Shown: positions 1-4,454, counted from the stretch's first letter. The stretch is DNA of 4,454 bases from a virus (IMGVR_UViG_2728369553_000002), one strand, 5' to 3'. Program-made: numbers and translations. The notes: generated by a model from the sequence alone, not told the origin.

Positions 1-980
1 CCCACCAGCTCACCGGTCTGCGTGGGACGTGCCGGATCGTTGCGAATAAACACCGCTGCGCGGGCGGTACGGCTTGCCGCCAGTTCGTCGGCAGGCGTCT
101 GGGTCTCTTTTTCGTACCCCGCCAGGGTAATGTGCTGCTGGTTAAACTGGTCACCTGCGGTCACCAGTTCTGACAGCGTGCCGATCTTTGCCGTATACAC
201 ATGACCATACAGCTGACGCGCATAGCTCCAGCGACCGCTGGTATCGTTCATCTCGGTCACCAGCGTGTTAACGGAGGCCGTGTCGTTGAACGGCAGGCCG
301 ATATAATCAAACGGCTCATCCGCCATTGCAGCCACCACGCCGGTGAGAACCGGAGCACCCGTTCCGGCGGTACCCGTCGCCACGGCAATCTGTACGCCCG
401 CTGGCAGCACTTCGCCCCCACCAAAGCCGTAGTAATTGAGGCTGACAGGAATTTCATTCCCGCAAAGCCCCTTATGACGCGCGGTCAGTGTGACCACACC
501 TGCCGAAGATGAAGCCGTAAACGGCAGGGCCGGAACGGCATTGATGGCATCTTTGATACTGCTGGCAATCGTCGTGACGTTATCGCCGTTGGTCACCGGA
601 GCCTGCACGCGGGTACGTCCCACATAGACATTCACCGTGCCGCTTTCGGTTGCTTCCCCGGTCACCGTCAGCGTAACCGTTGCCGCCGCGCCTGTGGCTT
701 CCGGAACGGCAATCACATACAGCTCACCAAACGGGTCGGTCTGGCGATAAGCCTCGACCATACGCGCCAGCTGACTTCCCGCACCACAAATCTGGCGTGC
801 ATAGTCTGCCGACGGCATCAGCACCAGACTGTTGGCAACAATCTCTGCACCGTTATTGGCATGACCAATCAGCAGCGATGCTCCGCTGTCCTGTGCAGTA
901 TTCGCAGCCTGGTTATCCATTTCCGCATAAAACAGCGGAACCAGCGTATTCGACGGAATGGTGTTAAAGCTTATCGTCAT
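1..980 (-). CDS. Probable phage tail sheath protein (contractile tail), 5' portion; ORF continues past the window start
   Basis: ATG at 978-980 with Shine-Dalgarno AGGTGA at 987-992 (6-nt spacer). I translated the minus strand by hand from 980 down to position 3 and found no in-frame stop (326 codons, MTISFNTIPSNTLVPLFYAEMDNQ...). Not in the ORF track because it has no stop inside the window. Length of at least 326 aa and position directly after a tail completion gene fit a sheath rather than a tube protein; the family assignment itself is inference. Confidence 0.6.
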   Translation of the reverse strand, partial: MTISFNTIPSNTLVPLFYAEMDNQAANTAQDSGASLLIGHANNGAEIVANSLVLMPSADYARQICGAGSQLARMVEAYRQTDPFGELYVIAVPEATGAAATVTLTVTGEATESGTVNVYVGRTRVQAPVTNGDNVTTIASSIKDAINAVPALPFTASSSAGVVTLTARHKGLCGNEIPVSLNYYGFGGGEVLPAGVQIAVATGTAGTGAPVLTGVVAAMADEPFDYIGLPFNDTASVNTLVTEMNDTSGRWSYARQLYGHVYTAKIGTLSELVTAGDQFNQQHITLAGYEKETQTPADELAASRTARAAVFIRNDPARPTQTGELV

Positions 981-1057
981 CGGTGTTCACCTTTTTATTC
1001 ACGCGCCGGATATCACCCGCTGCTTCACGGCGCAGCCAGTAGTTGTTCTCGTCAACA

Positions 1058-1113
1058 TTTCGCCCTTCGGCGGGCAAAAGGTCGCTGCGGGCAGGGTCAG
1101 GCACTGACCGCCC
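1058..1113 (-). promoter_or_regulatory. Two adjacent stem-loops in the 162-bp intergenic region between the tail completion gene and the sheath gene
   Basis: 1089-1113: GGGCAGGGTCAG / loop GCA / CTGACCGCCC (6-bp perfect core stem plus a 4-bp GGGC/GCCC extension with a 2-nt bulge). 1058-1079: GCCC / loop TTCGGC / GGGC flanked by partly paired TTT/AAA. This is the only sizeable non-coding gap in the operon. Confidence 0.4.
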
Positions 1114-1142
1114 TTTAACAGGTTTCACAAACATGAGGATCC

Positions 1143-1619
1143 TCAGGAAGGAATGGTTATTTCTGTGTGATGTTCGATATCGCCGTCAGGCCCGTTACCT
1201 GGATCGAGATAATCAACATCAATCGCCAGCGTTTGCAGTTCATCCAGACTGTTCAGATCATCCTGCTGGCGGGTATCGTCTTCAGTCAGCTNNNNNNNNN
1301 NTTCCGGGTTCCAGCCCAGCAGGGCCTTAAAGAGCATCTGCCGGACATCGTCCACCACATCATACGAGGCAAACTGACCGCGCTCATCACGCCCGTTACT
1401 CAGTATGACAACCACGGAGAAGCCCTCTTTCAGCTCCTGCCAGTAGTCGGTCTGGCTTTTGTTTTCTCCCGGAGAGTCATCACCCGGTACCACATACGCC
1501 GCCGGGAGTCTCAGCTTTCCGACCTCCGGCAGATTTTTGAACTGTGCCGCGCCTGCCACCCGGTTTTCAAAATACGGGCAGCGGGCACGCAGCGCAGCAA
1601 TAACAGGCGTCAGTTTCAT
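1143..1619 (-). CDS. Phage tail completion/terminator-like protein (Mu gp37 / DUF1834-like), copy 1, interrupted by an N-run
   Basis: 158-aa ORF in the track with XXXX at the 1292-1301 N-run; otherwise near-identical to the intact 186-aa copy at 1979-2539. The N-run stands in for about 94 nt present in copy 2. Start ATG 1617-1619 overlaps the stop of the upstream reading frame (ATGA). Confidence 0.5.
   Translation of the reverse strand: MKLTPVIAALRARCPYFENRVAGAAQFKNLPEVGKLRLPAAYVVPGDDSPGENKSQTDYWQELKEGFSVVVILSNGRDERGQFASYDVVDDVRQMLFKALLGWNPEXXXXLTEDDTRQQDDLNSLDELQTLAIDVDYLDPGNGPDGDIEHHTEITIPS
1292..1301. other. Assembly gap (10 N)
   Basis: Run of N; by comparison with copy 2 it replaces about 94 nt of the tail completion gene. 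Confidence 0.95.
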
Positions 1620-1691: not shown

Positions 1692-1816
1692 CTGGCATGA
1701 CCAATCAGCAGCGATGCTCCGCTGTCCTGTGCAGTATTCGCCGCCTGGTTATCCATTTCCGCATAAAACAGCGGAACCAGCGTATTCGACGGAATGGTGT
1801 TAAAGCTTATCGTCAT
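1692..1816 (-). pseudogene. Duplicated 5' fragment of the sheath gene (first ~41 codons), truncated at the N-run
   Basis: ATG at 1814-1816 with the same AGGTGA Shine-Dalgarno at 1823-1828; encodes MTISFNTIPSNTLVPLFYAEMDNQAANTAQDSGASLLIGHA, identical to the N-terminus of the 1-980 gene. The track ORF 1616-1816 fuses it across the N-run to the last 21 codons of the gp10-like frame. Confidence 0.55.
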
Positions 1817-1893
1817 CGGTGTTCACCTTTTTATTCACGCGCCGGATATCACCCGCTACTTCACGGCGCAGCCAGTAGTTGTTCTCGTCAACA

Positions 1894-1949
1894 TTTCGCC
1901 CTTCGGCGGGCAAAAGGTCGCCGCGGGCAGGGTCAGGAACTGACCGCCC
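1894..1949 (-). promoter_or_regulatory. Second copy of the intergenic stem-loop pair
   Basis: 1925-1949: GGGCAGGGTCAG / loop GAA / CTGACCGCCC. Stem identical to copy 1; the loop differs by one base (GCA vs GAA). Confidence 0.4.
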
Positions 1950-1978
1950 TTTAACAGGTTTCACAAACATGAGGATCC

Positions 1979-2539
1979 TCAGGAAGGAAGGGTTATTTCG
2001 GTGTGATGTTCGATATCGCCGTCAGGCCCGTTACCGGGCTCGAGATAATCAACATCAATCGCCAGCGTTTGCAGTTCATCCAGACTGTTCAGATCATCCT
2101 GCTGGCGGGTATCGTCTTCAGTCAGCTCGCTGATGACCGAAAAATCGAACTGATAAATCAGCTCATGACGATTCAGATCCAGCAGCGTGCCGCCGTCATA
2201 GGTAATCGGGTTACCGCACGCCTCCGGGTTCCAGCCCAGCAGAGCCTTAAAGAGCATCTGCCGGACATCGTCCACCACATCATACGAGGCAAACTGACCG
2301 CGCTCATCACGCCCGTTACTCAGTATGACAACCACGGAGAAACCCTCTTTCAGCGCCTGCCAGTAGTCGGTCTGGCTTTTGTTTTCTCCCGGAGAATCAT
2401 CACCCGGTACAACATATGCCGCCGGGAGTTTCAGCTTTCCGACCTCCGGCAGATTTTTGAACTGGGCCGCACCTGCAACCCGGTTTTCAAAATACGGACA
2501 GCGGGCACGCAGTGCAGCAATAACAGGCGTCAGTTTCAT
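1979..2539 (-). CDS. Phage tail completion/terminator-like protein (Mu gp37 / DUF1834-like), intact copy
   Basis: 186-aa ORF. N-terminus MKLTPVIAALRARCPYFENRVAGAAQF...LPAAYVVPGDD fits the general pattern I associate with tail completion/terminator proteins. Start ATG 2537-2539 overlaps the gp10-like stop at 2536-2538 (ATGA coupling). Sits between head-completion genes and the sheath. Family assignment is from memory of motifs, not a search. Confidence 0.6.
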   Translation of the reverse strand: MKLTPVIAALRARCPYFENRVAGAAQFKNLPEVGKLKLPAAYVVPGDDSPGENKSQTDYWQALKEGFSVVVILSNGRDERGQFASYDVVDDVRQMLFKALLGWNPEACGNPITYDGGTLLDLNRHELIYQFDFSVISELTEDDTRQQDDLNSLDELQTLAIDVDYLEPGNGPDGDIEHHTEITLPS

Positions 2540-3103
2540 CTGTGTCGTCGCTCCGGCTTCAGTGATTTACGCAATTCCCGCGCCAGAAAATAGCGTGTCC
2601 AGCTGCGGTTCTTTTCAAGCGTTTCCATCATGAAGTTATTACGTGGAGCCAGTCGCCAGCCGCTGCCACCGGATGCACCACGATGATGGCTGCGACGACG
2701 CTTTGCCCCTCGCCTCACGCCATAGAACAAAAAAGCCGGATAAAAATCACCAGTGATACGGCGGTTTCCCTCTCCATTACGCTGGTTAGGGGCTATACGT
2801 GCCATAAAACCAGGGCGATGTTTACTGGCTCTGGGTACCATGTAACCAATCGAACGAGCCAGGCGTCCGGTCTGATAACCGGGGTTTTCACCCGGTGCCG
2901 ACCGCGCACGGCGCATCACCAGCCGACGGGNNNNNNNNNNNNNNNNNNNNNNNNNNNNNNNNNNNNNNNNNNNNNNNNNNNNNNNNNNNNNNNNNNNNNN
3001 NNNNNNNNNNACCAATCGTGACAAACGCCCGCCGGACACGGGCGCGGTTAAAGCGCATCTCCGTGGGCTGCTGAAAATCAACGTGCAAAAAGGAAGTCGC
3101 CAT
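2536..3103 (-). CDS. HK97 gp10-like head-tail joining / virion morphogenesis protein, interrupted by an 80-N gap
   Basis: ATG at 3101-3103 preceded by GGAGG at 3109-3113 (5-nt spacer); N-terminus MATSFLHVDFQQPTEMRFNRARVRRAFVTIG. After the gap the frame ending at stop 2536-2538 encodes ...QTGRLARSIGYMV...DFYPAFLFYGVRRG...APRNNFMMETL, resembling the TG-L-SI ... YA-E-GT ... PF-PA pattern of gp10-family proteins. The two sides are in different frames as written, so true gap length and gene length are unknown. Confidence 0.5.
2931..3010. other. Assembly gap (80 N) inside the gp10-like gene
   Basis: Run of N; reading frame differs across it. Confidence 0.95.
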
Positions 3104-3488: not shown

Positions 3489-3808
3489 TGCGGAAAGTAC
3501 CTGTACGGGCTGACAAGCCAGCCAAAACTCTGCGGCATGTCGAGTTTCTCCACTTCCGTAACCGACGAGCGGTTTTCGTAAAAGTGGCTGATAAGCATCA
3601 GCATCCCAAGACGAATATCATCCGGCAGGTGCAGCCCGTCCGGATCGCTGTCCGGAATGGATTCATCCGGTGCATAGAGCTTCCGGTTCAGATACGTTTC
3701 CGTCCGCTTTTGCGCCGCACAGGCCAGCAGTTGCAGATGGCGGTCATCGGCATCGAAATCCTCATCCAGCCGGAGTTGGGCTTTAATCTCTTCCAGTGTC
3801 AGAAGCAT
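3485..3808 (-). CDS. Phage gp6-like head-tail connector protein
   Basis: MLLTLEEIKAQLRLDEDFDADDRHLQLL... is the typical N-terminus of gp6-like connector proteins. I place the start at ATG 3806-3808 (GAGGG at 3815-3819, 6-nt spacer) rather than the track's upstream ATG at 3812-3814, which has no spacer after the Shine-Dalgarno. Confidence 0.75.
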   Translation of the reverse strand: MLLTLEEIKAQLRLDEDFDADDRHLQLLACAAQKRTETYLNRKLYAPDESIPDSDPDGLHLPDDIRLGMLMLISHFYENRSSVTEVEKLDMPQSFGWLVSPYRYFPQ

Positions 3809-4010
3809 TCTCATCCCTCTTTACTGGCCGTGGCTTTTTCTCTTTTGCCGCTTTACTGCTTTTTGCACTGGTTCCGCGCTCTGCTAACCCGGCCTGAAGT
3901 GCAATCTCCTGCACCCGGGCAGGAAGCGCCCCGTCGTCATACTCACCGGCCCGAATGACCTCAACACGCATACCGTCCGGTGACCATTTAAGATCTTGTT
4001 TCAGGATCAT
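3783..4010 (-). CDS. Hypothetical small protein (75 aa) between the capsid and connector genes; function unknown
   Basis: ATG at 4008-4010 with GGGTGA at 4017-4022 (6-nt spacer). Codon usage looks enterobacterial (CTG, AAA, CCG, GGT, CGT). Acidic N-terminal half and a Lys-rich tail (SAKSSKAAKEKKPRPVKR). Its last ~26 nt overlap the connector start in another frame. I recognise no family. Confidence 0.45.
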   Translation of the reverse strand: MILKQDLKWSPDGMRVEVIRAGEYDDGALPARVQEIALQAGLAERGTSAKSSKAAKEKKPRPVKRDENASDTGRD

Positions 4011-4033
4011 GATTCTTCACCCTTCAGAACAGG

Positions 4034-4051
4034 GGGCGCGGAACCGCGCCC
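4034..4051 (-). promoter_or_regulatory. GC-rich stem-loop just downstream of the capsid stop codon (possible partial terminator or mRNA 3' stabiliser)
   Basis: Perfect inverted repeat GGGCGCGG / AA / CCGCGCCC on the plus strand (8-bp stem, or 7 bp with a 4-nt loop), 9 nt after the capsid stop as read on the minus strand. It is followed on the transcript by CCUGUUCUG, not a clean U-tract. Confidence 0.4.
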
Positions 4052-4059
4052 ATGAGCGA

Positions 4060-4454
4060 TTACTTCTCTGCAATCTTCAGCAGTTTGATGGCCTGCGAAT
4101 CGACCAGCATTCCGCCGGTGCGCTTGGTGGTATAAAAACCGACAAACGGTTTATTGGTGTACGGGTCACGCAGAATGCGGGTGCCGATACGGTCAACGAT
4201 GGTGTAACCCCGTTTGAAGTTACCAAATGCGATGGCTTTCGCATCCGCAGCAATATCCGGCATCTGTTCGTTTTCAGCAATACCGTACCCCAGCAGAGAA
4301 GAAGGCTGCCCCAGTTCCAGCCCCGGACGCCACAGATAGTTACCCTCGTTGTCTTTCAACAGACGAATGGCAAACAGGCTGTTGTTGTTCATCATGAACT
4401 TCGCGCCAGTGCGGTGTGCCTTACGCAGCGTGTAAATCAGTTTGATAATGGCGT
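4060..4454 (-). CDS. Phage major capsid protein, C-terminal portion; ORF continues past the window end
   Basis: Stop TAA at 4060-4062. My translation stays open upstream of the track's Met through the window end (...AIIKLIYTLRKAHRTGAKFMMNNNSLFAIRLL...). C-terminal sequence ...RDPYTNKPFVGFYTTKRTGGMLVDSQAIKLLKIAEK and position immediately upstream of the connector gene fit a major capsid protein. Confidence 0.7.
   Translation of the reverse strand, partial: AIIKLIYTLRKAHRTGAKFMMNNNSLFAIRLLKDNEGNYLWRPGLELGQPSSLLGYGIAENEQMPDIAADAKAIAFGNFKRGYTIVDRIGTRILRDPYTNKPFVGFYTTKRTGGMLVDSQAIKLLKIAEK

Follow-up and report, generated by a model that had tools for sequence, protein, structure and literature searches.

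We report that the stretch at 981-1142 of a 4,454-nt viral sequence (hereafter the window), which a first-pass annotation had read as a structured 162-bp intergenic region, is coding. It is the body of a small, conserved, translated minus-strand gene under purifying selection, the DUF2635 gene at 964-1134(-), and this gene is already known as gp38 of phage Mu and orf10 of phage SfV. Embedded in the gene, at 1089-1113, is an mRNA hairpin for which selection on RNA pairing is strongly supported by the pattern of synonymous changes among homologues. That the two go together, a coding gene and a selected mRNA hairpin within it, is in our estimation highly probable. The whole explanation, which adds to these a cis-acting, post-transcriptional role for the hairpin, is given a probability of roughly 0.6, and any single mechanism for that role is at best tentative.

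Gene content of the window

The minus strand carries every gene of the window, and the module is that of an SfV-type lambdoid myovirus, in which an HK97-like head goes together with a Mu-like tail and with Q antitermination. The features referred to below are as follows:

4060-4395, minus strand: major capsid gene, 3' end (ORF list and Pfam)
3783-4010, minus strand: 75-aa ORF between the capsid and head-tail connector genes (no Pfam match)
1979-2539, minus strand: tail terminator gene, copy 2, complete, 186 aa (Pfam PF23840, E=3.1e-26)
1925-1949, minus strand: mRNA hairpin, copy 2, with the loop UUC, not UGC (covariance-model match 1922-1952(-), 54.5 bits)
1800-1970, minus strand: DUF2635 gene, copy 2 (Pfam E=1.2e-15, 57.3 bits)
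1143-1619, minus strand: tail terminator gene, copy 1, broken by the N run 1292-1301 (ORF list)
1135-1145, minus strand: terminator-DUF2635 junction (read from the sequence)
1089-1113, minus strand: mRNA hairpin, copy 1 (ORF nt 22-46, codons Gly8-Arg16, peptide G-R-S-V-P-D-P-A-R)
1058-1079, minus strand: second predicted stem-loop (ORF nt 56-77, codons Leu19-Asn26)
964-1134, minus strand: DUF2635 gene, copy 1, 56 aa (Pfam PF10948, E=5.5e-16)
1-980, minus strand: tail sheath gene, 5' part, 326 codons, running off the window (Pfam Phage_sheath_1 and Phage_sheath_domII)

In descending coordinates, the 75-aa ORF is followed by a head-tail connector gene, a head closure gene and a gene broken by N runs, and these by the terminator gene at 1979-2539, the 56-codon ORF at 1800-1970, a sheath fragment, an N run and then the second set. 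E. coli ECONIH4 has a counterpart of the 3783-4010(-) ORF, annotated there as a pseudogene with a frameshift. Annotations of the 1979-2539(-) protein are in conflict, with Pfam naming it 'Phage tail terminator protein' and PHROG 209 'portal protein'; gp37 of Mu (957-1505 of locus L120) belongs to the same family, and the RefSeq record of Mu says 'portal protein'.

With N runs at 1292-1301, 1682-1691 and 2931-3010, the window is a scaffold. Two pairs of repeats, 857-1156 / 1693-1992 and 1303-1602 / 2223-2522, are 96-98% identical and give the appearance of a duplication of ~0.84-0.92 kb that spans the sheath start, gp38 and the terminator gene. Closed E. coli genomes carry a single copy only, and the 4454-nt window maps to 3557 nt in them; the assembler has probably fused two prophage alleles into the apparent 'two copies'. 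Given that the copies are joined across N runs and are absent as a pair from closed genomes, they are not independent biological replicates within one phage, and the earlier use of the repeats as evidence that stems had been preserved falls with them as a scaffold artefact. Where the copies were compared (848-1291), they differ within the region at 1022, 1086 and 1102. The last is a synonymous change in Val11 (GTG/GTT), the remaining two being S17G and A38V; it is also the sole difference inside the hairpin at 1089-1113, and it does fall in the loop, as had been observed.

The region had further been described as the only substantial non-coding gap in the operon. This is wrong, since the largest true gap in the window is at 4011-4059. 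Those 49 nt of the minus strand, between the capsid stop and the next ORF, hold a GC-rich hairpin, GGGCGCGG-UUCC-GCGCCC, and the annotation of SfV places a putative rho-independent terminator at the equivalent site after the capsid gene. A simple terminator scan missed the 4011-4059 hairpin because there is no clear U-run behind the stem.

The DUF2635 gene ahead of the sheath

The ORF at 964-1134(-) matches PF10948 at 58.5 bits, against a cut-off of 26.6, over profile positions 1-45 of 46, and its protein matches PHROG 208 (E=2e-25). The product is 98% identical to that of SfV orf10 ('similar to phage Mu GP38'), the counterpart in Mu being Mup38. A DUF2635 CDS is also annotated in SfV, SfI, SfII, ST64B and Mu. 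In closed E. coli genomes, a 'DUF2635 domain-containing protein' is annotated between the 'phage tail terminator protein' and the sheath, and the gene order terminator - DUF2635 - sheath is common to E. coli, SfV and Mu. Matches were found in 1074 of 5426 E. coli genomes, or ~1 in 5 complete genomes.

Homologous loci from different species all retain an intact ORF (38/38), with lengths of 51-70 aa. Entropy by codon position is 0.47/0.42/1.17, with the third position the most variable, and pN/pS is 0.28. The most conserved peptide block of the family is GRSVPDPAR, which is where the hairpin lies. The gp38 protein is small and basic, and its AlphaFold model is confident (pLDDT 84), with short strands, one helix and a disordered basic C-terminal tail. 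No sequence relative of the protein was found in the PDB, and a Foldseek search with the model gave as its best match the B. subtilis prophage protein YqbF at E=1.4, which is not significant. A literature search on DUF2635, Mup38, SfV orf10 and sheath stem-loops turned up nothing useful.

The genes at this site are tightly packed. The terminator gene ends in a TGA at 1145-1143, which is overlapped by a Shine-Dalgarno sequence, GAGGA (1144-1140), located 5 nt upstream of the DUF2635 ATG (1134-1132); the true untranslated spacer ahead of this ATG amounts to 8 nt (1135-1142). At its other end, the DUF2635 ORF has its stop codon at 964-966 and overlaps the sheath gene by 17 nt, with the sheath ATG at 980-978 and the AAGGUG that precedes it sitting within the DUF2635 ORF. 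In 111 related loci, most upstream gaps measure 3-9 nt and downstream overlaps 1-17 nt, and weak GAG/GAGG Shine-Dalgarno motifs adjoin the upstream stop in the homologues. The terminator-gp38-sheath layout is the usual one for genes of a lambdoid late operon that are translationally coupled.

Selection for RNA pairing in the hairpin at 1089-1113

Both of the inverted repeats proposed earlier, at 1058-1079 and 1089-1113, were recovered, and the hairpins that they form are on the mRNA (minus) strand. The 25-nt hairpin at 1089-1113 (copy 1, GGGC-GGUCAG-UGC-CUGACC-CU-GCCC) consists of a 6-bp inner helix (window 1095-1109), a 3-nt loop, a 2-nt bulge and a 4-bp outer helix. Its folding energy is -13.9 kcal/mol (z=-2.6); a 71-nt stretch with both stem-loops gives z=-3.7 and the whole 162 nt only z=-1.8, all of these z-scores being for segments picked after the fact. 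The hairpin begins 21 nt past the weak-SD AUG and extends from +22 to +46, just beyond what an initiating ribosome usually covers.

Of the 10 hairpin pairs, 6 are dictated by first and second codon positions. Two pairs are formed between third positions, Arg9.3-Asp13.3 and Ser10.3-Pro12.3, while Val11.3 is in the loop and Pro14.3 in the bulge. The loop can be written U-N-C, where U and C are set by codons and N is free. Given that the peptide fixes most pairs, the covariation rests on the two third-position pairs plus the conserved Gly8 and Ala15 codons.

A homologue set was assembled with third positions left unconstrained. Its sources were 38 loci from a one-genome-per-species collection and three scans in which degenerate DNA patterns for the octapeptide were run over viral contigs, the degenerate patterns having been adopted because a locus search of the viral contigs gave near-identical loci only. 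The resulting 232 loci reduce to 113 distinct sequences, in which the third positions are occupied as follows:

Arg9.3-Asp13.3, pair: GC 74, AT 26, GT 11, CC 2 (mismatch)
Ser10.3-Pro12.3, pair: AT 64, GC 20, GT 10, TA 8, CG 7, TG 3, TT 1 (mismatch)
Val11.3, loop: T 82, G 18, A 11, C 2
Pro14.3, bulge: T 74, G 19, C 13, A 7
Gly8.3: G in 111/113
Ala15.3: C 108, T 5

Both third-position pairs are complementary in 98-99% of the 113 sequences, compared with 23% and 42% expected from the codon usage of SfV late genes. Six pair types occur at Ser10.3-Pro12.3, all four Watson-Crick types among them. Gly8 is held at GGG and Ala15 at GCC, while the unpaired Val11.3 and Pro14.3 drift freely. In the 113-sequence alignment, 99.3% of cells are paired, compared with 93.3±0.5 in shuffles, and 47 cells are changed on both sides, compared with 13.1±2.8; not one of 500 shuffles matches the observed pairing or the observed double-sided changes. 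A control in which the partner was slid gave 19-56% pairing. By parsimony, the Ser site has undergone at least 22 changes and the Pro site at least 16, with only 23 joint changes, on a rough neighbour-joining tree built from the rest of the ORF (~100 nt) in which many sequences are related. Given that joint changes are about as numerous as single-site changes, changes at Ser and Pro coincide.

RNAalifold recovers the hairpin. In an 800-nt alignment that runs from the terminator 3' end through gp38 and 330 nt into the sheath gene, the only helix with substantial covariation is that at ORF nt 26-40, and neither local nor any-distance scans of this alignment for helices of at least five stacked pairs found a larger structure or a long-range partner.

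Wobble pairs bear on which strand is involved. Of the 226 cells, 24 hold a sense-strand wobble pair (G·T or T·G) and none holds A·C or C·A; going by the marginal frequencies, ~17 A·C would be expected at the Arg/Asp pair by itself, where 0 are observed. Parsimony assigns at least 17 independent origins to the sense-strand wobble pairs. Since wobble occurs only in the orientation that pairs in mRNA, we conclude that the selected object is an RNA hairpin of message polarity; the asymmetry speaks against an antisense RNA.

The second stem-loop, at 1058-1079, has a folding energy of -11.0 kcal/mol (z=-3.0) and shows no real covariation (90.3% paired versus 90.0% in shuffles). Its pairs 61-72, 57-76 and 60-73 are unpaired in 25%, 32% and 12% of homologues, respectively, with no compensation, and the stem-loop appears to be largely a by-product of the encoded peptide. 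The earlier suggestion of selection on structure is thus borne out for 1089-1113, by compensatory synonymous changes in 113 distinct homologues, and not for 1058-1079.

We also record some variants in the two stems. In the second stem, Arg25 (window 1060-1062(-)) is the rare codon CGA in 91 of 104 distinct homologues, and CGA pairs with U58 of Leu20; a single compensatory event is suggested by the presence of C58 together with G75 in three sequences, which is too little to call the stem conserved. In the hairpin at 1089-1113, a 5-bp stem with a 5-nt loop remains in the Pro12-to-His variants (L087-L089, L097, L104), and in the Ala15-to-Val variants (L099, L113, L114, L116) a G-C pair becomes G·U, with the stem still workable.

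Distribution of the hairpin

Covariance-model and regex searches, which covered SfV and 1.2 Mb of related contigs, gave exactly one hairpin for each phage, the next-best covariance-model matches (16 bits, E about 5) being noise. On this count, a repeated, boxB-like operator appears less likely. The GRAVPDP subfamily serves as an internal control: its Ala10 introduces a G·A mismatch into the stem, and only 3/10 sequences are paired at the corresponding third positions. Mu gp38 (KAIRDP) does not form the inner stem, and the relatives of Mu in the viral contigs, at 97-100% identity, are too close for covariation. Although DUF2635, Mu gp38 and SfV orf10 are the same gene, with 45/46 HMM positions covered and the same synteny, the hairpin is confined to the GRSVPDP subfamily. 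On these comparisons, it is a feature of that subfamily (Enterobacterales and a few others, e.g. Chromobacterium) and not essential to the gene family. A cmscan of the whole window against Rfam 15, on both strands at E<=1, returned 0 matches, and the embedded hairpin appears to be undescribed, as far as Rfam and the searchable literature show.

Proposed role of the hairpin

We favour a role in cis, at the post-transcriptional level, because of the message polarity of the hairpin, its fixed position, the coupled layout of the genes and a site just ahead of the tail genes in highest demand. The hairpin would act at the terminator-gp38-sheath junction. In the version that we prefer, a stable helix 21 nt past a weak-SD AUG would limit or pace ribosome entry and flux on gp38, a protein presumably needed in few copies. 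Alternatively, or in addition, the hairpin may protect from decay a part of the long late transcript that is poorly translated and lies just before the sheath and tube genes, for which demand is high. Against a cis-acting role, disruption of the hairpin is predicted to leave the accessibility of the gp38 RBS unchanged and barely to alter that of the sheath RBS, and a start at +22 makes an effect on initiation not obvious. Melting by translating ribosomes would weaken a pure stabiliser model. The RNA processing site or stabilising structure that the first-pass annotation had listed may nevertheless apply to the hairpin at 1089-1113.

An 'insulator' that keeps the gp38 or sheath RBS open is not supported, as synonymous in-silico disruption of the hairpin in 110 homologues had no meaningful effect. 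In this comparison, predicted accessibility was 0.513 vs 0.513 for the gp38 RBS and 0.511 vs 0.498 for the sheath RBS, a shift of 0.013.

The main rival, which we regard as unlikely, is that the hairpin serves as an operator through which an RNA-binding protein of the phage or the host, perhaps gp38, the sheath protein or the terminator protein, feeds back on gp38-sheath translation. The hairpin is small, stable and close to a start codon, its position and shape are strictly conserved down to the bulge, and gp38 is a small, basic protein with a confident predicted fold, all of which would suit an operator. RNA-phage coat-protein operators (MS2, PP7) and the like are hairpins near start codons, and the present one resembles them in being a small bulged hairpin that overlaps coding sequence near the start codon and shows base-pair covariation. 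However, theirs include the start codon or RBS, and the loop and bulge that the protein reads are conserved, whereas the hairpin described here lies at +22 to +46, outside the ribosome-binding site, and its free bases vary. Its middle loop base and second bulge base are free and the other loop and bulge bases are codon-fixed, so that there is no independent sign of sequence-specific recognition. Each phage has one copy, and relatives of the same protein family (Mu gp38 and the GRAVPDP subfamily) do without the hairpin.

Other known systems resemble the hairpin in part. Stabiliser and processing hairpins occur as REP-type elements, in the puf and pap operons and at T7 RNase III sites. Like these, the hairpin is a single stable one in a polycistronic message, at a boundary of genes needed unequally; unlike these, which are in untranslated spacers, it is inside a translated ORF. 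RNase III sites need ~20 bp, whereas the hairpin at 1089-1113 is bulged and pairs over 10 bp. Short cis-acting hairpins of nascent phage transcripts are also known as lambda nut boxB and HK022 put, and the likeness is in being short hairpins of a phage transcript; theirs, however, are untranslated, sit a short way downstream of early promoters and have conserved loops. Intrinsic terminators and attenuators, such as the SfV site after the capsid gene and the hairpin at 4011-4059 in the window, are likewise GC-rich mRNA-strand stem-loops in a late operon, although the hairpin at 1089-1113 is without a U-tract and within coding sequence. It would belong among cis-acting RNA structures embedded in coding sequence.

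Two terminator readings were rejected. An intrinsic terminator at 1089-1113 has no U-tract, the stem being followed by CGCAGCGACC. An antisense terminator, for which UUUAA lies behind the stem on the plus strand, is ruled out by the wobble asymmetry and by the variable downstream sequence.

Alternatives to a selected hairpin in a coding gene

Upkeep of the inverted repeat at the level of DNA is a quite improbable explanation. Template switching, an established mutational mechanism, can 'correct' inverted repeats, and either quasipalindrome upkeep of this kind or the binding of GGTCAG-N3-CTGACC by a dimeric DNA-binding protein would bring about symmetric half-site changes that mimic covariation. 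The asymmetry of 24 G·T/T·G to 0 A·C/C·A, however, fits an RNA of mRNA polarity and not duplex DNA, and one position accepts all four base-pair types, which would not be tolerated in a half-site contacted by a protein. Constraint extends to Gly8 GGG and Ala15 GCC of the bulged outer helix, and there is a single copy per genome.

It is highly improbable that RNA selection is absent and that the stem is a by-product of the invariant GRSVPDPA peptide and of shared ancestry. Gly/Pro and Ser/Asp codons are complementary to each other, and many of the sequences are close relatives; random synonymous recodings of the peptide, with 6/10 pairs fixed by codon positions 1 and 2, fold at a mean of -8.9 kcal/mol, and 3% of them reach the native value. 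The third positions nevertheless go well beyond what the peptide imposes, with 98-99% complementarity, four Watson-Crick types and many independent joint changes, and those of the loop and bulge are free. In 16 unrelated sequences with the same octapeptide, only 7/16 are paired at each third-position pair, and their median fold is -8.5 kcal/mol versus -15.3 for the homologues. Furthermore, Arg9 avoids the common codons CGT and CGC in favour of rare ones (CGG 77, CGA 25, CGC 2, CGT 0), whereas Arg16, Arg35 and Arg36 of the same gene are mostly CGC/CGT. This explanation is already largely refuted.

The first-pass annotation had also entertained an activator-dependent late promoter, which in a non-coding intergenic region would raise transcription of the sheath gene. 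A need to step from the low-copy terminator to the high-copy sheath is plausible, and P2 has a late promoter ahead of its sheath gene. The stretch is, however, a conserved ORF under purifying selection, and only 8 nt are truly intergenic (3-9 nt in homologues). The scan of 800-1290 found no sigma-70-like promoter, in agreement with the earlier failure to identify a sigma-70 promoter, and no terminator-like site either. According to annotation, SfV-type phages rely on one late promoter and on Q antitermination from it. A late promoter here is very unlikely indeed.

Finally, programmed frameshifting or bypassing within gp38, with the hairpin as downstream stimulator, can be dismissed: such frameshifting is known for tail chaperone genes and the hairpin is inside an ORF of a tail gene cluster, but codons 6-7 upstream are variable with no conserved slippery heptamer, both alternative frames hit stops before the sheath ATG, and the full-length 0-frame protein is conserved to its end region.

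Implications

The His12 and Val15 variants hint that protein evolution in the hairpin region has been channelled by the RNA structure. A bolder reading, for which we see only a small chance, takes the GRSVPDP motif and the hairpin as one dual-coded element in which the RNA is primary, and thereby as an unrecognised post-transcriptional control point of SfV/Mu-type contractile-tail modules. If so, the element might, for example, be an operator to which an unassembled tail protein binds, or a processing or decay barrier through which the ratio of terminator to sheath is set, and it would be common to hundreds of enterobacterial prophages.

Two general points follow from the analysis as a whole. 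An annotated small ORF can readily pass for a regulatory spacer, and RNA elements that are hidden in coding sequence can be brought to light by covariation at synonymous sites.

Beyond differences in RBS strength, it is poorly understood how the long late transcripts of temperate phages yield some tail proteins in a few copies and others in hundreds. The hairpin at 1089-1113, which is single-copy, fixed in position, strongly selected and located in a tiny gene ahead of the sheath, offers an easily mutated handle on tail-protein dosage, in a prophage family that is very common in E. coli, Shigella and Salmonella.
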